NCBI GenBank assembly: GCA_964534905.1 | Contig: CAZHPZ010000001.1 | Location: 21,719 to 85,718 of the forward strand | From: an uncultured Lachnospiraceae bacterium | GTDB lineage: Bacteria > Bacillota > Clostridia > Oscillospirales > CAG-272 | Direction: 5' to 3' | DNA length: 64,000 nucleotides | In this document: positions 4,118-12,549 of the stretch, one piece after another | Numbering within the stretch: position 1 is the first letter of the stretch | How the letters are laid out: each line of letters begins with the position of its first letter | Position numbers and translations under genes: made by a program | Notes under the pieces: generated by a model | What the model saw: the letters and a program-made list of their open reading frames with translations, nothing else | Databases searched by the model: none | Told to the model about the DNA's origin: nothing

Positions 4118-5770
4118 TTATTGCTTATCTATTAGATCCAATATCTGCTCTACATTCTTTTTGCCGAAATATACGTCCTTGTCATTAATGATGAGGCAGG
4201 GAACACTCATAACATTGTATTGACTTTTCAGACTGTCAAAATGTCTGATGTCATATGCCTCGGCACGTACAGATGGGTTTTTCGAGGCTATGCGTTGGCA
4301 GGCGGTGACAAGGTCGGGGCACATTGTGCAGGAAAGAGATACCAATATCTTCATATCTGTTGCTGTTTTTATATTGTCAATCCTGCTTTCCGTTTCTGTA
4401 TTCAGTGTTTGCCCCTTGCCCGAAGCATTATAGAGTGCAAGCACGAATGATGTGAATTCGTGACCGAGAGGCACTCCGTGAAACGCTATTCCCGTATCCT
4501 CGCCGTCACGGAAAATACGCACACAGGGGTATGCCGTGTTTTTTGAGCCTGTTTCCGCAATTGTCAAGGTAAGCTTTTCCGAAAGACTGCATAACTCTCG
4601 TGCGAAATGCTCAAGCTCCTCTGATATGGGGCGATTGTCAAGGTACAGGGTGAGCGTCAGCGGATGTTCCGTTTTCTCGAAAACTACCGCTAACTGCTCT
4701 CGCATATTTCTATCAAAGAGTGATGATGCTCCGGTATCACCCTCTGAGTCTTTAGCATTTTGATGTGCAGAGGTAGCTCTTTTGCGTTCGGGTGGAGTCG
4801 GGTGCAGACCTGTTTTTGCTTGCATAGCCGTTGCATATTTTTCAAGCTCGGTTGCCGCTATCGCACCGTCACCCGTGGCGGTCACTACCTGACGAAGTGG
4901 CTTGATGCATACGTCTCCTGCCGCATAAACTCCGTCGGCACTCGTTTTTTGTGTAGGATCCGTTACAATATATCCCTTATCAAGGGCTATTTTATCCTTG
5001 ACAATCTCCGTGTCGGGCGAATAGCCCGCAAAAACGAATACGCCGAAGTCCTCTCCTACATCGGCTTTGTATTCGGTTGTCTCTCCCGTCCTTGTATTTC
5101 GGTATCTTATATAATTGATGCCGTTCTCACCCGATACCTTTTCCGCCACAGTATTTGTCAGTACGGTTATTTTTTCGTGATTTTTTGCCGGTTCTGCAAC
5201 TGCTGCAGCACAGGTGAAATCATCTCCTCGTATCATAATGGTTACGTGACGTGCGAATTTTGTCAGAAATACGCTCTCCTCGGCTGCGGCAAATCCGCCT
5301 CCTATTACAAAGATATCCTTGCCTGTAAAAAATTCTCCGTCACATGTCGCACAATAAGCAACTCCGCGCCCTCTGAATTCATCTTCTCCGTCAAATCCTA
5401 CCTTGCGAGGGCGAGCACCCGTGGCAATCAGTATTCCGAAGCAGTAAATGTCGCCTCTGCTTGTGTGAACGGTCTTTACGTCGTCCGTAATATCAAGCTT
5501 TATTACCTCTGCGGCTAAAAATTCCGCACCGAATCCCTCTGCTTGACGATACATTGCATCGGTCAGAGCACGTCCGCTTATCTGTTCTATACCGGGATAA
5601 TTTACCACCTCGTCCGTTATCGTAATTTGACCTCCGAGCTGCTCCTTTTCGATTACCAAAACTCTGTGTCTTGCTCTTGCAAGATAGATGGCGGCGGTTA
5701 GGCCTGCGGGACCTCCGCCGATTATTACCGCATCGTAGAGCCTCTCTTCATCATATTGTCTGTTTTCCAT
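4118..5770 (-). CDS. ahpF: AhpF-like NAD(P)H peroxiredoxin reductase with reversed domain order (TrxR module first, AhpF N-terminal-type thioredoxin folds last)
   Basis: N-terminal part has VIIGGGPAGLTAAIY and the CATCDG redox centre. C-terminal part has FHGVPLGHEFTSF and a CTMCPD dithiol. Its ATG overlaps the ahpC stop (TAATG). Confidence 0.8.
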   Translation of the reverse strand: MENRQYDEERLYDAVIIGGGPAGLTAAIYLARARHRVLVIEKEQLGGQITITDEVVNYPGIEQISGRALTDAMYRQAEGFGAEFLAAEVIKLDITDDVKTVHTSRGDIYCFGILIATGARPRKVGFDGEDEFRGRGVAYCATCDGEFFTGKDIFVIGGGFAAAEESVFLTKFARHVTIMIRGDDFTCAAAVAEPAKNHEKITVLTNTVAEKVSGENGINYIRYRNTRTGETTEYKADVGEDFGVFVFAGYSPDTEIVKDKIALDKGYIVTDPTQKTSADGVYAAGDVCIKPLRQVVTATGDGAIAATELEKYATAMQAKTGLHPTPPERKRATSAHQNAKDSEGDTGASSLFDRNMREQLAVVFEKTEHPLTLTLYLDNRPISEELEHFARELCSLSEKLTLTIAETGSKNTAYPCVRIFRDGEDTGIAFHGVPLGHEFTSFVLALYNASGKGQTLNTETESRIDNIKTATDMKILVSLSCTMCPDLVTACQRIASKNPSVRAEAYDIRHFDSLKSQYNVMSVPCLIINDKDVYFGKKNVEQILDLIDKQ

Positions 5771-6333
5771 TACAGCTGTCCGACGAGATCAAGACTCGGC
5801 TTGAGGGTTTCTTCACCGGGACGCCAGTTTGCGGGGCAGACCTGATCTCCGTGTGCGTGAACAAATTGGCATGCCTGAACCTTGCGGAAAAGCTCCTCTG
5901 CGTTTCTTCCGACGTTTCCGGCGGTTATCTCGTAGCCTACTATTTTCCCCTCGGGATTGACTATAAACGTTCCTCTTTCGGCGAGTCCCTCGGATTCTAT
6001 CAGAACCTCAAAATCTCTTGAAATGGCGTGAGTAGGATCGGCAAGCATGGGAAAGGTTATCTTTTTTATTCGTTCCGACGCGTCGTGCCAAGCCTTATGA
6101 ACGAAATGTGTGTCCGTGGATACGGAATATATTTCGCATCCGACTCCCTTGAATTTCTCATATTTATTTGCGAGATCCTCAAGCTCCGTGGGGCACACGA
6201 AAGTGAAATCGGCGGGATAGAAAAAGAATACGCTCCATTTGCCTAAGGTGTCGTCCTTGGTGACGGATTTGAATTCGCCTGCGTGATAGGCGTTTGCCTT
6301 GAAATTTGAAATTTCCTTATTAATGATTGACAT
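5770..6333 (-). CDS. ahpC: Alkyl hydroperoxide reductase subunit C (typical 2-Cys peroxiredoxin)
   Basis: Peroxidatic motif FFFYPADFTFVCPTEL and a resolving Cys near the C-terminus (HGDQVCPANW). Confidence 0.95.
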   Translation of the reverse strand: MSIINKEISNFKANAYHAGEFKSVTKDDTLGKWSVFFFYPADFTFVCPTELEDLANKYEKFKGVGCEIYSVSTDTHFVHKAWHDASERIKKITFPMLADPTHAISRDFEVLIESEGLAERGTFIVNPEGKIVGYEITAGNVGRNAEELFRKVQACQFVHAHGDQVCPANWRPGEETLKPSLDLVGQL

Positions 6334-6458
6334 AGTGATGCTTCTCCTTTGTTTGTTTTTTGAGGATGAAATTGTCCTTTCCCGAAAAGTATTCCCGAGT
6401 TTTGCTTGATTAATTCGTAAAGTTTCGGGGATACTAATTAAAAACAGAGGTGATATTT

Positions 6459-7862
6459 ATGGAAAAAAGCAAATCAAATAAATATGCGTCGGGATTTGTG
6501 CCGTTTGCTCTCGGAGCGTTTCTCGTCGGCATAGTGGGCGGATTTACCACGGTTCTCGGTCCTGCTTTCGTTAAGGATCTCGGACTTGATTATAATAATA
6601 CCGCTTGGACGTCGCTTGCATTGGCTATATCAAGTGCTGCCTGCGCCCCGATACTCGGCAAATTGGGTGACGCAATAGGCAAGGGAAGAACGCTTATCCT
6701 CGGAATAGGTATCTTTACTCTCGGTAACGTGCTTACCGCAACGTCTGCGACATTGATTTCTATGCTTGCGGCACGCTTTGTTGTCGGGCTGGGAAGTGCG
6801 GCTATAGCACCCGTTGTAATGTCATATATCGTCACGGAATTTCCGAAAGAGAAGCAGGGTGTCGGATTTTCTTTGTATATGCTGATATCGAGCTGTGCGG
6901 TCATATTCGGACCGACCTTGGGCGGAATTATGATAAACGGCTTCGGATGGAGAGCGATGGTTTGGGTCTGCGTTGCGATATGTATAATTGTGTTTCTTGC
7001 TTGTCTTGCGCTTTGCACTACTAAAGGAGAGAAGCGACGTTCACTCTCGGACTTCGATTATATCGGCTCATTTCTTGTTTTGCTGTTTTTCGGATCGCTT
7101 TTGTGCATACCGTCATTCGGGCAAAACATAGGCTGGAGCTCTGCTGCTTTTCTTCTAAGCGTAATATGCGCTTTGATATCTCTTTTCGGGCTTTGCATTG
7201 CGGAGAGACGGGCGAAAAATCCCATATTGAGGTGGGATTTTATAAAAAGAAAGAGATTTGTTTTGTCCGTGCTTGCCCTTTTTCTGACACAGGGGCTTAT
7301 GCAGGCGAATATGACGAATACGATAGTTTTTGTTAATTATACGCAGGCGGACAATACGGTAATTTCGGGATATGCAATCTCTGTTATGTATATCGGAATG
7401 TCTCTCGGCGCACTGCTTTTGGGACCGCTTGCGGACAGATATGAGCCGAAAAATGTTCTTCTTTGCTCTTTTGCCGTGACGGGCTTGGGGTGCGCTCTTA
7501 TGCTTGCCTTCTCCGAGTCTGTCGGTACGCTTTTGCTTGCGTTGTCGCTTGGTATTCTCGGATTCGGTCTCGGCGGAAACGGTACCGTGTTTATGAAGGT
7601 AGTTCTATCGGGCGTTCCTGTTGAAGCTGTAAGCTCAAGCACGGGAACGTATGGACTTTTCCGTGACCTTGCAGCACCGTTCGGCGTTGCGGTTTTCGTA
7701 CCGATGTTCACAAACAGCGTCACATCATATATTAATGAGGGAGCAAGTGCCGCATATGCAGCTGCAGTTTCGATAAGGGAGATTGCTCTTATCGAAATTT
7801 TCTGCGTTATCCTCGGTATTTGCGCCGTTCTTTTTCTGCCGAGGACGAATAGTGGAAAGTAA
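6459..7862 (+). CDS. MFS transporter (drug:H+ antiporter-like, about 14 TM segments)
   Basis: Hydrophobic throughout, with the MFS loop motif GKLGDAIGKGRT. AGAGG RBS lies 8 nt before the ATG at 6459. Confidence 0.8.
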   Translation: MEKSKSNKYASGFVPFALGAFLVGIVGGFTTVLGPAFVKDLGLDYNNTAWTSLALAISSAACAPILGKLGDAIGKGRTLILGIGIFTLGNVLTATSATLISMLAARFVVGLGSAAIAPVVMSYIVTEFPKEKQGVGFSLYMLISSCAVIFGPTLGGIMINGFGWRAMVWVCVAICIIVFLACLALCTTKGEKRRSLSDFDYIGSFLVLLFFGSLLCIPSFGQNIGWSSAAFLLSVICALISLFGLCIAERRAKNPILRWDFIKRKRFVLSVLALFLTQGLMQANMTNTIVFVNYTQADNTVISGYAISVMYIGMSLGALLLGPLADRYEPKNVLLCSFAVTGLGCALMLAFSESVGTLLLALSLGILGFGLGGNGTVFMKVVLSGVPVEAVSSSTGTYGLFRDLAAPFGVAVFVPMFTNSVTSYINEGASAAYAAAVSIREIALIEIFCVILGICAVLFLPRTNSGK

Positions 7863-7945
7863 TAAAAAACTCGGGCGCGGTGAAAATTCCCGTGCCCGAT
7901 TATGATTTTTGTGCAAAATGTAGAAAAATACGAATGAAAATAGGG

Positions 7946-7963
7946 CGCCTAATATATTATTAG
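7946..7963. repeat. Left arm of an 18-bp perfect inverted repeat (candidate inverton IRL; also part of a local imperfect palindrome)
   Basis: CGCCTAATATATTATTAG is the exact reverse complement of 8098-8115. Confidence 0.8.
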
Positions 7964-7981
7964 ACGCCTTTTGTTGCTCTA

Positions 7982-8010
7982 ATTTTACTCTTTTTTGTGA
8001 TATTTGTCAA
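7982..8010 (-). promoter_or_regulatory. Strong leftward sigma-A-type promoter inside the IR-bounded segment
   Basis: On the minus strand, TTGACA (8010-8005), a 17-nt spacer, then TAAAAT (7987-7982). Confidence 0.6.
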
Positions 8011-8026
8011 TACATTTTGGAAAATA

Positions 8027-8055
8027 TTGTACCGTAAATTGCTTTTTCTTAAAAA
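8027..8055 (+). promoter_or_regulatory. Weaker rightward promoter inside the IR-bounded segment
   Basis: TTGTAC (8027-8032), a 17-nt spacer, then TAAAAA (8050-8055). Confidence 0.35.
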
Positions 8056-8097
8056 AATATTCGTCATTTTAACTCAAAATCAGTGTTTTTTGGACGC

Positions 8098-8115
8098 CTA
8101 ATAATATATTAGGCG
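8098..8115. repeat. Right arm of the 18-bp perfect inverted repeat (candidate inverton IRR)
   Basis: CTAATAATATATTAGGCG. It is locally part of the 9-bp-stem palindrome CGCCTAATA-ATA-TATTAGGCG. Confidence 0.8.
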
Positions 8116-8336
8116 AACTCTTTCGCGGGTGCCGAGGGTGTTCGGAAAGCTCGGGCGGAGTAAAATCACTTGCACAAGGCTTTAATTTTTCAGGTGCGGC
8201 GATGATACTTTCCCGACGGCTGTTTTTTATCCGTGCGTTATTTGCGTAAACGCTTCGGAGTGAGGACGGCGGAGAGCGTTTGAGGTGCCCAAATCAAAAC
8301 AAAAATAAAAACAAAATCAAAAAGGAGATTTTTCTT

Positions 8337-9539
8337 ATGAGAAAAAATCAAAAGGGTTTTACCCTCGTTGAATTGCTCGTAGTAATCGCTATCCTTGCTA
8401 TTCTTGCAACCGTTGCGGTAGTCGGTTATTCAAGCTTTATCGACAGTGCAAACAAGAGCGTAGACCAGCAGGTAGTTGCTCAGATGAATACTGCTCTCCA
8501 GGCAGCTTCCGTTGAGGGCAGACCTCAGAACAGAACAGATCTTCTCAAACTGTTCGATAAGCACGATATCGACATAAACAAGCTTGCTCCCGTAACAGAG
8601 GGATATGCTTTCTATTGGGATATGACGGAAAATAAGATAGTTATCGTTAACAATGTTAAGGATATTGAAGAGGATTGGGAATATATTGTATCTAACGGCT
8701 TTGGTAAGTTGACAGAGGCAGAAAGTGTAGAATACATAACTTCCGCTATTTCCGAATCCAGTAAAACAAATCCTGCTCTTATTAAGTTGAGCGGCGATGT
8801 TACGACGACAGAATGCATTACTGTTACTGAAGAGCAGTGCGTAATAATTGATTTGAACGGTCACACGATTGGTTATGAAAACAGTGATAAACTCGCACTT
8901 CAGGTAGAAAAGGATGCAACATTGACTGTTAAAAACGGAGATATCAAGGGAAAAGTTAATAATGTCGGTGGACATTTAACTCTTGATCATGTAAATGTAA
9001 ATAAAGAAGCTGATAGTGAAGTCAAAGGTGCATTGGCATTTAGCCGCGCTTCCGATACTTATATTACAAATTGTACTTTTACAGCGGATAAAAACGCCGG
9101 ACATACTATCGGTACAAACAGCACCTATGATGCTGATGATGGCGCACGTGTGTATATTATAGATTCAAAAATATATCAAACAAGTGATGAAACTTACCCT
9201 GCCGCAGCACTTAATATCACTATTGATTGCGATATAACTATTAATCATTGTAAAGTTATAGGTGTAGGTCACGGTGCATACTTCCGCGGATGCACTGCCA
9301 CTCTCATCAATTCCACATTTACACATACTTCTACAAAAGACGGTACACCTTGGGGAACAGGAAATAACGGAAAATTTGCCGACATCGTATTTGCTTGCGG
9401 AGGAGAAAACTTTAGCGGCTATGCAACAACTGCTAACTACACTTGCGAAAAAGTAACCGCAACAACTGTATACGTACATCAGCCCGAGGGCGGTACAGTT
9501 ACTGTTAGCGGAATAGAAGTTAACGAAACTTATAATTAA
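8337..9539 (+). CDS. Prepilin-type (type IV pilin-like) protein with a large C-terminal domain predicted to be a parallel beta-helix
   Basis: Class III signal: MRKNQKG/FTLVELLVVIAILAIL. The C-terminal 250 aa carry repeated turns NCTFT, INHCKVIG and LINSTFTH. AAGGAG RBS precedes the ATG at 8337. Confidence 0.75.
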   Translation: MRKNQKGFTLVELLVVIAILAILATVAVVGYSSFIDSANKSVDQQVVAQMNTALQAASVEGRPQNRTDLLKLFDKHDIDINKLAPVTEGYAFYWDMTENKIVIVNNVKDIEEDWEYIVSNGFGKLTEAESVEYITSAISESSKTNPALIKLSGDVTTTECITVTEEQCVIIDLNGHTIGYENSDKLALQVEKDATLTVKNGDIKGKVNNVGGHLTLDHVNVNKEADSEVKGALAFSRASDTYITNCTFTADKNAGHTIGTNSTYDADDGARVYIIDSKIYQTSDETYPAAALNITIDCDITINHCKVIGVGHGAYFRGCTATLINSTFTHTSTKDGTPWGTGNNGKFADIVFACGGENFSGYATTANYTCEKVTATTVYVHQPEGGTVTVSGIEVNETYN

Positions 9540-9669: not shown

Positions 9670-9745
9670 TGGTCGAAGTGGCGGGACTCGAACTCGCGGC
9701 CTCCAGTACCCGAAACTGGCGCGCTACCAGCTGCGCTACACCTCG
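9670..9745 (-). tRNA. tRNA-Pro (anticodon CGG)
   Basis: Manual cloverleaf: acceptor CGAGGTG/CACTTCG, anticodon stem CCAGT/ACTGG with loop TTCGGGT, T-loop GTTCGAGTC, encoded CCA. Confidence 0.9.
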
Positions 9746-9854: not shown

Positions 9855-9885
9855 ACTTGAGTAAATTAAATATCGGACTAAAGAA

Positions 9886-10031
9886 TAGTTAGAGGCGCGG
9901 TTAAGAATAGTAGCCTCCCGTAGACGCTCAAACGTTGATGACGGGGTGTGAAAGGCAAGACCGCCGAAGTGAATTTCGCTTTTGAGGGCGTTATTTGCTG
10001 GGCAAACGGGGAACACCCGCTTGACTGTCAC
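9886..10031 (+). promoter_or_regulatory. Lysine riboswitch (L-box) aptamer
   Basis: All the L-box islands I remember from Bacillus lysC are present in order: AGAGGCGCG, AGTAGCC, GTGAAAGG, CGCCGAAG, TTATTTGCTGG, ACTGTCA. Confidence 0.85.
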
Positions 10032-10084
10032 AATTTTTTGTGGAGTGCTGCTTTCGATATGGTGATCTTTTGCGGGATTATTGC

Positions 10085-10111: not shown

Positions 10112-10149
10112 AATTTGCAAAATATTATCGTTTGAAAGGAACAAACAAA

Positions 10150-11037
10150 ATGAAAAGAAACATTTCTTTAATCTCACTCGTTGCAGTTTTCTGCATACTT
10201 CTTACCGCTCTTACGGCATGCCCTGACAAGAGAGAGGGCGTTGATATCTCCGGTGCTACCGATCTTTCGGGTCTTGCGGGTGCAACTCTTGCCGCACAGA
10301 CAGGAACATTCCACCTTGACGCACTCAATACGCTCGGTAACATTACCGTTCGCGAATACGAGGACTTTTCAAAGCTTCTCATTGCATTGAAGAGCGGTGC
10401 TATTGACGGATATGTTGCAGAGGAGCCTACGGCTCTCAGCGTTGTCGCTTCCGATTCCTCTCTTGCTTATCTCCCTCTTGTAAACAATTCAACGGGATTT
10501 GCCGCAACCGATGAGGATACGGGAATTGCAGTCGGATTTAAAAAGGGTAGTGAAATGGTTGCAAGGGTAAATCCTATTATTGCTTCCATCAGCTCCGAAA
10601 CACGCTCCGCGCTTATGGAACAGATTGTAAGAATCAGTGAAAATACCGACACTTCCATTGGCGAGGACATCGTTCTTTCATCGTCAAATACAAATGTATC
10701 AAACGGTACGCTTAAGATAGCGATGGAGTGCAATTACGCTCCCTTTAACTGGACGCAGATGACCGATGCCAACGGTGCTGTTCCGATTGCAAATGCAAGT
10801 AATATGTACGCTAACGGATATGACGTTCAGATTGCAAAGTACATTGCGGCAGAGCTCGGTATGACTCTTGAAATATATTCCGCAGAGTGGGACAGCTTGA
10901 TTCCCGGAGTTAACGCCGGAACATACGACGGAATTATCGCAGGTATGAGCCCCACAGCCGAAAGAAAAGAAAAGATCGATTTTACGGATTGCTATTACAA
11001 TTCAAATCTCGTTATAATTTATAAGAAAGCTAACTGA
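10150..11037 (+). CDS. Amino-acid ABC transporter substrate-binding lipoprotein (SBP_bac_3-like, circularly permuted)
   Basis: Lipobox LLTALTAC. The second-lobe segment (ATLAAQTGTFHLD...IDGYVAEEPTAL) precedes the segment that normally comes first (LKIAMECNYAPFNW...WDSLIPGVNAGTYDGIIAGMSPTAERKEKIDFTDCYY). Confidence 0.8.
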   Translation: MKRNISLISLVAVFCILLTALTACPDKREGVDISGATDLSGLAGATLAAQTGTFHLDALNTLGNITVREYEDFSKLLIALKSGAIDGYVAEEPTALSVVASDSSLAYLPLVNNSTGFAATDEDTGIAVGFKKGSEMVARVNPIIASISSETRSALMEQIVRISENTDTSIGEDIVLSSSNTNVSNGTLKIAMECNYAPFNWTQMTDANGAVPIANASNMYANGYDVQIAKYIAAELGMTLEIYSAEWDSLIPGVNAGTYDGIIAGMSPTAERKEKIDFTDCYYNSNLVIIYKKAN

Positions 11038-11038
11038 A

Positions 11039-11815
11039 ATGGAATTTATCAACAACGTAATTAACATCATAACAAAATATTATTCCGTGCTCCTTGAGGG
11101 CTTGGGATATACAATGCTTATCGCACTTACGGGTACTCTTTTCGGACTTGCGATCGGATTGCTCACCGGTATTCTCAAAACGGTCCCCGCTTCAAAGAGC
11201 CGTCCTGTCAGAATACTTCAGAAGATACTTAATTTTATAATCGCGTGCTATGTCGAGGTGTTCCGCGGAACGCCTATGATGGTACAGGCTATGGTAATTT
11301 TCTGGGGGTATGCCTTTATGAACGGAGGAAATACGCTTCCTCTTATCCCTGCGGGCATATTTATCGTTTCCATAAATACGGGTGCGTATATGACGGAGAT
11401 CGTGCGCGGCGGCATTATTTCAATAGACAAGGGACAGTTTGAGGGCGCGTATAGCGTCGGAATGACACATTGGCAGGCTATGACCAATGTCGTTATCCCT
11501 CAGGTTATGAGAAATATTCTCCCCTCTATTTCCAACGAGTTTGTTATCAATATTAAGGATACATCGGTGCTCAACGTTATCGGCGTTATGGAGCTTTACT
11601 ATATGGCAAGCAAGATACAGTTTATGACGCTTGACATATTCGAAACATATCTTATCGTTTGCGTGATGTATTTCATAATGACCTTTACGGTTACAAGAAT
11701 CCTTCGCCTCTTCGAAAAGAAGCTTGCGGGAAGTGATTCTTATACGATTTGCGGCTCACAGTCGGATCCCGACGCCGAGATACATGTGCATGCACAGAAG
11801 GAGGAATACAGATGA
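11039..11815 (+). CDS. Amino-acid ABC transporter permease (His/Glu/Gln/Arg family)
   Basis: Multi-TM protein with an EAA-like loop ([28 protein letters not shown]). Confidence 0.9.
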
Positions 11816-12549
11816 GCGAAACGGTAATTTCAATTAAAAATCTCAAAAAGAGCTTCTCCGAACGTGATATTCTTAAGGGAATAGACTTGGAAGTTAAGAA
11901 AAACGAGGTTATTTCGGTTATCGGCTCATCGGGCTCGGGAAAGAGCACGATGCTTCGCTGTATTAACCTGCTTGAGGAGCCTACCTCCGGTGATATTCTT
12001 TTCCACGGAAAGAGCGTGCTCGGAGGGGATATCGATCTGAATGAATACCGTTCGAGAATCGTTATGGTGTTCCAGCAGTTCAACCTTTTCGGAAATATGA
12101 GCGTTCTTGACAATTGTGTTCGTCCGCAAACGGTCGTTCTCAAGAGAAGCAAGGACGAGGCACAGAAAACAGCCCTTAAATACCTTTCAAAGGTCGGTAT
12201 GGCAGAGTATATAAATGCCCGTCCGTCGCAGCTTTCGGGCGGTCAGAAGCAGAGAGTTGCCATTGCACGTGCGCTTTCTATGAATCCCGAGGTTATCCTT
12301 TTTGATGAGCCTACGAGTGCACTTGACCCCGAAATGGTCGGAGAGGTGCTTGACGTAATGCGTGAGCTTGCCGACGAGGGACTTACAATGATAGTTGTAA
12401 CGCACGAAATGGCATTTGCCCGCGATGTTTCAAGCAGAGTAATATTCATAGACGAGGGTATTATTTGTGAGGAGGGAGATCCGAAGGAATTCTTCGCCGA
12501 TCCCAAGACCGACAGAGCCAGAGCCTTTCTGTCAAGATTTTTACAATAA
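11812..12549 (+). CDS. Amino-acid ABC transporter ATP-binding protein
   Basis: Walker [10 protein letters not shown], signature [15 protein letters not shown], Walker [16 protein letters not shown] overlap with the permease stop. Confidence 0.9.

Follow-up and report, generated by a model that had tools for sequence, protein, structure and literature searches.

Does the inverted repeat at positions 7946-8115, which lies between an MFS transporter gene (6450-7862, plus strand) and a pilin-like gene (8337-9539, plus strand), turn the pilin-like gene on and off by inverting a promoter? An earlier note had proposed this from the letters of the window, the whole 64-kb stretch of DNA analysed here. 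Our analysis supports that proposal, and 7946-8115 is probably an inverton, i.e., a switch in which a tyrosine recombinase inverts a promoter. The support is comparative and comes from the site family, its geometry, its linkage to recombinase genes and flips detected elsewhere, not from the window locus itself. Judged by its sequence, the window element matches the family in site sequence, spacers, spacing, promoter geometry and surface-protein cargo, and inversion of the window copy would be expected by analogy with its relatives.

The gene that such a switch would control reads away from the element, as the surface-protein cargo of the family does:

8337..9539, plus strand: pilin-like gene of 400 aa with a prepilin N-terminal methylation motif (KGFTLVELLVVIAILA) and a match to PF07963 (E 3.4e-11).

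A tRNA gene (9673-9745, minus strand) comes after the pilin-like gene, which is thus a stand-alone single-gene unit. Further along, a lysine riboswitch (9882-10058, plus strand; Rfam RF00168, 105 bits) is followed by ORFs at 10132-12549 that read like the binding protein, permease and ATPase of an amino-acid ABC transporter. On the other side, upstream of the MFS gene, the ORFs 5770-6333 and 4118-5770 (minus strand) read like an AhpC/AhpF peroxiredoxin pair.

The perfect 18-bp inverted repeat described in the earlier note is present: CGCCTAATATATTATTAG occupies 7946-7963, and 8098-8115 is its exact reverse complement. The 134-bp interior is indeed AT-rich, with 27.6% G+C between the 18-mers compared to 44.1% for the 64-kb window. 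The arms had also been described as locally palindromic, which is borne out, and they are more fully described as two 21-bp sites. Each site consists of two inverted 9-bp half-sites around a 3-nt spacer, CGCCTAATA-N3-TATTAG(G/A)CG. This is the two-half-site layout of a recombinase core site, and the palindromy is no complication for reading the element as an inverton. The sites and the segment that they enclose are as follows:

7946..7966, no strand assigned: left recombination site, CGCCTAATA-TAT-TATTAGACG, i.e., outer half-site, 3-nt spacer and inner half-site.
8095..8115, no strand assigned: right recombination site, CGCCTAATA-ATA-TATTAGGCG, identical to the family consensus at 21/21 positions.
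7967..8094, no strand assigned: invertible segment, 128 bp between the 21-bp sites.

These are the sole sites of the 9-N3-9 palindrome pattern in the 64 kb, where 0.05 matches were expected and none of 100 shuffles gave two or more. A search of the window with the 18-mer, allowing up to three mismatches, returned three matches against 0.11 expected. The left site agrees with the family consensus at 20/21 positions; its sole mismatch is in the inner half-site, and the resulting GACG variant is common in the family, occurring in L028, L029, L031, L050 and the loci of recombinases P0192 and P0164. The spacers, TAT on the left and ATA on the right, are reverse complements of each other, and the sites are in inverted orientation with a start-to-start distance of 149 bp, which is within the family range. 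If the crossover falls in the site centres, the DNA that truly flips would be approximately 7956-8105. The bases immediately outside the window half-sites are GGG, AGG, GGA and GTT, compared to a family flank consensus of TGT(A/T) adjoining CGCC that is 70-80% conserved. Covarying flanks had been considered as evidence for an RNA stem and were dropped, as the flanks are mostly conserved TGT(A/T) and resemble part of an extended half-site.

Both promoters described in the earlier note were found. The leftward one, TTGACA-17-TAAAAT, has 11/12 consensus positions, and the rightward one, TTGTAC-17-TAAAAA at 8029-8057, has only 8/12 and falls under our scan threshold. The leftward promoter points away from the pilin-like gene, i.e., the assembly has the OFF orientation, and the distance from the end of its -10 box to the left site is 15 nt, the most common value in the family. 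The features of the predicted transcripts are:

7982..8010, minus strand: sigma-70-type promoter, -35 TTGACA at 8010-8005, 17-nt spacer, -10 TAAAAT at 7987-7982.
7944..7968, minus strand: left-site hairpin in the OFF transcript, 11 pairs, -14.9 kcal/mol, then CCCUAUUUUCAU.
7863..7899, minus strand: second hairpin (7871-7899), then UUUUUU, adjoining the MFS stop codon, as folded with RNAfold from the predicted OFF transcript.
8116..8336, plus strand: leader from the right site to the start codon, with the ribosome-binding site AAAGGAG at 8321-8327.

From these features a mechanism can be proposed. Each 9-bp half-site would presumably bind one recombinase monomer, around the asymmetric 3-nt spacer, and strand exchange in the centres of the inverted sites would flip a segment of about 150 bp that carries one strong sigma-70-type promoter. 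The recombinase would act in trans from elsewhere in the genome. In the OFF state, the promoter would read leftward through the left site into two terminator-like hairpins: the transcript would start near 7975 (minus strand), form the arm hairpin followed by a U-rich stretch, and then meet the second hairpin. The arm hairpin looks like a terminator, and the second hairpin, as predicted by folding, probably stops the OFF transcript ahead of an antisense run into the MFS gene and probably also terminates the MFS gene on the plus strand. Because the OFF transcript would contain two such hairpins, antisense transcription into the MFS gene should be blocked. In the ON state, the flipped promoter would lie at about 8051-8079 (plus strand), with transcription starting near 8086, crossing the right site and reaching the pilin-like gene at 8337 after a leader of about 250 nt. 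A flip about the site centres would give the arms CGCCTAATATATTATTAGGCG and CGTCTAATAATATATTAGGCG. The junctions expected in the flipped state are ...GGGCGCCTAATATATTATTAGGCGTCCAAAAAAC... and ...ACAAAAGGCGTCTAATAATATATTAGGCGAACTC..., and GGGCGCCTAATATATTATTAGGCGTCCAAAAAACACTG and CAACAAAAGGCGTCTAATAATATATTAGGCGAACTCTTTCG would be the diagnostic junctions of a flipped reference. Within the leader (8116..8336) we found neither a plus-strand promoter of at least 9/12 nor a terminator-like site. A 20-nt stretch of the MFS terminator stem (AAAACTCGGGCGCGGTGAAA, 7866-7885) recurs at 80% identity in the leader at 8146-8165, where this copy is part of a hairpin (CCGAG...CTCGG) without a U-tail.

The hairpins raise the question of whether the locus could work through RNA only, with the arms as hairpins or bidirectional terminators and the segment encoding a small RNA of about 115 nt that is read leftward. 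The arm hairpin does fold at -12 to -15 kcal/mol, the minus strand has the U-rich tail and the second terminator, and A-rich/T-rich flanks belong to the family consensus. The hairpin sequence itself is conserved, however, and not just its pairing, and a search of 7800-8400 against Rfam gave no family at the gathering score, the best E-values (0.4-5) falling far short. Like the operator reading discussed below, which the earlier note had also listed as an alternative, an RNA function does not explain the paired inverted layout with its matched spacers, the recombinase linkage or the flips, and as a sole explanation it deserves very little credence. A hairpin or terminator function may well coexist with inversion as a secondary role of the sites.

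The evidence that carries the inverton reading comes from other genomes. We scanned one genome per species for exact matches to CGCCTAATANNNTATTAGNCG and obtained 50 stretches. Most came from MAGs of Clostridia or Ruminococcus; a genome often contained several of them, and they frequently lay at the ends of contigs. These stretches contain 24 inverted pairs (up to three mismatches) with start-to-start distances of 127-225 bp, mostly 127-180 bp, and interiors between the sites of 106-204 bp. The central triplets fall into 11 classes across loci, yet within pairs they are exact reverse complements in 24/24 cases, with 0/72 positions differing. Between partner arms, about 9.8% of half-site positions are different, which makes the probability of observing zero spacer difference about 6e-4. 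Tyrosine recombinases such as Cre, Flp and lambda Int need an identical overlap region in the partner sites. Two strain variants at the locus of recombinase P0128 are identical over the 330 nt compared except for a coordinated spacer change that affects both arms, TGC/GCA versus TAC/GTA.

The spacers bear on the possibility that the palindromes are a pair of operators, to which a dimeric repressor binds, possibly looping the 149 bp, and controls the promoter without any rearrangement. Arms of the form 9-N3-9 are typical of dimeric DNA-binding proteins, and the predicted transcription start is followed by one of the sites after about 8 nt. An operator pair does not, however, predict that a non-conserved triplet is matched in every one of the pairs, that both spacers change together between strains, or that a tyrosine recombinase lies next to sites at which flips are observed. 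We regard this reading as highly improbable.

The promoter geometry of the family is equally regular. A promoter of at least 10/12 is enclosed in 34/35 distinct elements, usually with 11-12/12 and a 17-nt spacer, and in 31 of the 34 strong-promoter elements the -10 box ends 13-17 nt (mode 15) from an arm, with the promoter reading outward through this arm. The gene pointing away from the element nearly always encodes a surface protein. Five other family loci (L008, L009, L012, L023, and L037) have pilin-like N-methyl cargo, nine (L004, L006, L014, L016, L018, L040, L043, L048, and L050) have lipoprotein cargo, and LRR_5 proteins form the third cargo class. At L029 (4305-6599), an inverton in the ON orientation faces not a surface protein but a 764-aa protein with an N-terminus like a helicase or restriction-type ATPase (…HPTGTGKSF…), which, going by its sequence, may be a phase-variable defence gene.

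Several family loci show further arrangements. Tandem invertons are present in L055 (3477-3655 and 3759-3938), L024 (3302-3481 and 3572-3740), L035 (2949-3096 and 3394-3573), and L031 (6817-6983 and 7084-7261), and every one of these has a separate promoter and spacer class (TGC and TCG in L055, for instance); those in L035 control divergent neighbouring genes. Recombination between neighbouring switches would be prevented by such differences in the spacers. Contigs end at a site or within a few bases of one at the end of L019, the start of L027, and in L005, L013, L026, L020, L072, and L073. L019 and L027 come from one MAG and share an overlap of exactly 55 nt, which stops at the point of expected divergence between the orientations. 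Such breaks fit mixed orientations or repeated copies that break the assembly graph.

Homologues of the window's pilin-like protein have PF07963 and some also have PF13229 (beta-helix), and the closest of them, P0002 and P0005 (37-42% identity), have no such sites upstream, which ties the switch to the recombinase/site lineage rather than to the pilin gene family. Two homologues of the small pilin cargo of L023, P0366 and P0279, likewise have no sites and give no information on flips. P0366 directly follows a truncated recombinase gene. In L090-L097, a truncated recombinase (614-1465, 283 aa, weak catalytic-domain match) is separated by 36 bp from a small pilin gene at 1501, with no sites between the two; this arrangement appears to result from a deletion in which the inverton was lost and expression became fixed.

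Which enzyme would act on the sites? At four loci (L004, L008, L018, and L028), the distance between the pair and the end of an ORF with PF00589 and PF14659 (about 300-313 aa) is 47-83 bp, and tblastn revealed that the same recombinase family adjoins a site in L031, L044, and L049. Together these make seven loci, selected by their sites, in which no more than about 85 bp separate a site from the end of the recombinase gene. The converse also holds: four recombinases picked by protein homology and contig count alone (P0128, P0203, P0192, and P0164) all have paired sites just downstream. In all, a recombinase of about 310 aa lies beside a pair in 11 independent lineages. The catalytic R..HxxR..H..Y residues are invariant in the alignment, and the catalytic domain of Tn1549 Int (6en0, E 2e-25) is the nearest relative with a solved structure. 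With a profile search, at least 7,244 related proteins of about 308-314 aa were found at E < 1e-30, none of them named, and the family scores under the cut-off of every NCBIfam model. The plasmid and phage collections contained only relatives under 40% identity. From this co-location, we infer that the recombinase family is the enzyme that acts on the sites.

Genes for mobilisation, rolling-circle replication and conjugative coupling were observed directly upstream of several recombinase-plus-inverton modules: Mob_Pre at L055/L057 (972-2129), REP_ORF2-G2P at L075-L078 (1110-2156), and a TraG-like coupling protein/MobL at L065 (353-1879) and L073 (1-2294). This suggests that the modules ride on mobilisable elements or plasmids, and such carriage might explain the occurrence of the site in distant taxa (Mollicutes, 'Bacteroides' MAGs).

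Within the window itself, the earlier note had reported no recombinase gene, and we also detected none among all ORFs of at least 60 aa with the family HMM and a Hin query, a screen that covers the tyrosine family and the Hin-like serine type and that other recombinase types would escape. This bears on the only serious rival explanation, namely that the element is a locked relic, descended from an inverton whose recombinase was lost or never compatible, with the promoter frozen OFF and the pilin-like gene silent or otherwise expressed. The deviation of the window's flank bases from the family consensus points in the same direction, as does the fact that only one orientation of the window locus is at hand. 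Unselected relics are expected to decay, whereas the window has two intact sites (20/21 and 21/21), matched spacers and an 11/12 promoter. Moreover, most family loci in multi-locus MAGs have no adjacent recombinase, which makes action in trans the norm and plausible for the window; in CAYOCM, at least eight family loci are without a recombinase within the 8 kb examined. We therefore consider a relic unlikely.

Exact-protein look-ups with the window's pilin-like and MFS proteins and with P0001 returned no record, i.e., no other copy of the locus. A metagenome scan with the left flank of the window plus the repeat gave 0 matches, and a scan with a gapped two-site pattern also gave 0 matches, which may reflect the make-up of the collection or the handling of gapped patterns. 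The locus is present as a single copy in the searched collections, which accordingly yielded no second orientation of it.

At related loci, the segment was found in both orientations. In contigs of different samples encoding identical recombinases (three lineages, 25 contigs), both orientations occur with identical flanks. At the P0203 locus, the 127-nt interior has one sequence in three contigs (L065, L069, and L070) and its exact reverse complement in five (L066, L067, L068, L071, and L074), with flanks and arms identical between the two groups, and two further contigs (L072 and L073) end two bases past the arm, where the two versions diverge. The P0203 arms have matched GTA/TAC spacers and keep the architecture, with half-sites that have diverged by 4 and 2 mismatches from the consensus. 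P0192 is represented by five contigs per orientation and P0164 by three contigs in one orientation and two in the other. In these two lineages the inner half-sites differ from each other and swap with the segment while the outer half-sites stay put; the left arm, for example, alternates between CGCCTAATA-CAC-TATTAGACG and CGCCTAATA-CAC-TATTATTGG. Since the inner half-sites move with the segment, the crossover falls within the AATA-NNN-TATTA centre. The promoter faces the surface-protein gene in one state and the 3' end of the recombinase gene in the other. The repeats are far shorter than the k-mers of assemblers, and the flips are therefore no artefacts of assembly.

The same is true of other homologous loci. 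L004 compared with L018 and L014 has collinear flanks and an interior that aligns only when flipped. In one MAG, the paralogous pilin-like loci L023 (ON) and L037 (OFF) have pilin-like genes that align forward, whereas the alignment of the element is a reverse one, with 84.8% identity over 151 nt.

These comparisons also bear on a miniature transposable or REP-like repeat, whose terminal inverted repeats would be the arms and whose chance insertion would have brought in a promoter. In favour of such a repeat, genomes have many copies, the interiors in one genome are alike, and contigs break off at the arms. Transposition would not, however, produce orthologous loci in which only the interior is reversed and the outer half-sites are fixed. 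The window element is flanked by no target-site duplication, close relatives revealed no empty sites with a duplicated target, and the tyrosine recombinase associated with the family retains every catalytic residue. This is the least probable of the explanations that we weighed, and we give it next to no weight.

If the inverton reading is correct, the window contains heritable ON/OFF control of a pilin-like, probably adhesive, surface protein in an uncultured Clostridia-type organism, and such control of surface proteins is the usual strategy for immune and phage evasion and for variation of adhesion. A broader proposal, which we put forward only tentatively and hold to be somewhat more doubtful than true, is that the window switch is an instance of a very large, hitherto undescribed inverton system of gut Clostridia, with a near-universal lox-like site, a 3-nt spacer pairing code, phase variation of modular type IV-pilin-like adhesins, lipoproteins and LRR proteins, and travel with mobilisation and replication genes. 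If a spacer code exists, a single recombinase acting in trans could flip many promoters while recombination between loci stays limited, and if the broader proposal is true, the phase-variable surface genes of uncultured Clostridia would be predictable by site search alone. The 21-bp site together with the fixed promoter geometry would provide a sequence-only signature for switches in MAGs, where read-based methods are weak. Spacer matching within pairs and the natural double-substitution variants make a partner-spacer rule directly testable, and the spacer classes suggest an orthogonal set of sites for genetic tools in Clostridia. A literature search did not find the motif in a relevant context, nor a description of this particular inverton family. 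The family-level picture, i.e., the near-universal site, the spacer matching, the fixed promoter geometry, the thousands of unnamed recombinases and the mobilisation links, may be new.

In kind, the proposed switch is a tyrosine-recombinase promoter inversion, comparable to fimS, the Clostridioides difficile RecV switches and Bacteroides Tsr. E. coli fimS (FimB/FimE) is likewise a promoter inversion by tyrosine recombinases that controls a pilus gene, with half-sites that flank a short core. The fimS element is 314 bp long, its repeats measure 9 bp, it depends on IHF and Lrp, and fimB and fimE, its recombinase genes, lie next to it. The window differs in its segment of about 150 bp, its 21-29-bp lox-like palindromes and the lack of a recombinase nearby, and lies outside the definition of fimS. 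The cargo differs as well, being a chaperone-usher fimbria at fimS and a Gram-positive type IV-pilin-like protein in the window.

The sites resemble those of Cre/loxP, Flp/FRT and XerCD/dif in having two inverted binding elements around a short asymmetric central region. In loxP, FRT and dif this central region sets the orientation and must match between partners. Only 3 central bases vary in the window family, compared to 6-8 in the Cre, Flp and Xer systems, and the true overlap of the window-family sites probably extends over conserved TA bases to the left and right. Among solved structures, the catalytic domain of Tn1549 Int, rather than Cre, Flp or Xer, is closest to the recombinase.

The invertible promoters of Bacteroides (Mpi for capsule loci, Tsr tyrosine recombinases for surface proteins) are similar: the numerous loci of a genome have a repeat consensus in common and resemble one another in their internal promoter, a single recombinase acts on them globally, and most are in the OFF state at a given time (cited in PMC11892184, PMC11602134). 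Mpi is a serine recombinase, whereas the recombinases of the window's site family are PF00589 tyrosine recombinases, which places this family outside the Mpi type; the Bacteroides systems also differ in phylum, promoter type and repeat sequence. In the hCom2 gut community, inverton group 139 with 'invertase group 35' comprises 33 invertons, 32 of them from the class Clostridia, nearly all of which adjoin a tyrosine-type recombinase/integrase, and orientation shifts were measured in culture (PMC11892184). For two examples of group 139, the repeats measure 13 and 25 bp and the interiors, at about 206-228 bp, exceed most of those in the window family (PMC11892184); a member of the group lies in Clostridium sp. 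D5 at 3525576-3525832.

The RecV switches of C. difficile (cwpV, flgB, and cmrRST) consist of several short invertible regulatory segments on which a tyrosine recombinase acts in trans (PMC2784873, PMC5903667). They share with the window family the occurrence in Clostridia, segments of about 150-200 bp, inverted repeats of about 20 bp and a position upstream of surface or motility genes. The RecV repeats are not known to share the sequence of the window site. The cwpV switch works via a terminator in the leader, and its promoter is not moved, whereas in the window family a promoter at a fixed distance from the arm moves. Finally, in the R64 shufflon (Rci, PilV) a tyrosine recombinase also varies a type IV pilin-related protein, and the module is also linked to mobile DNA; the shufflon rearranges coding segments of pilV, whereas the window family inverts a promoter.
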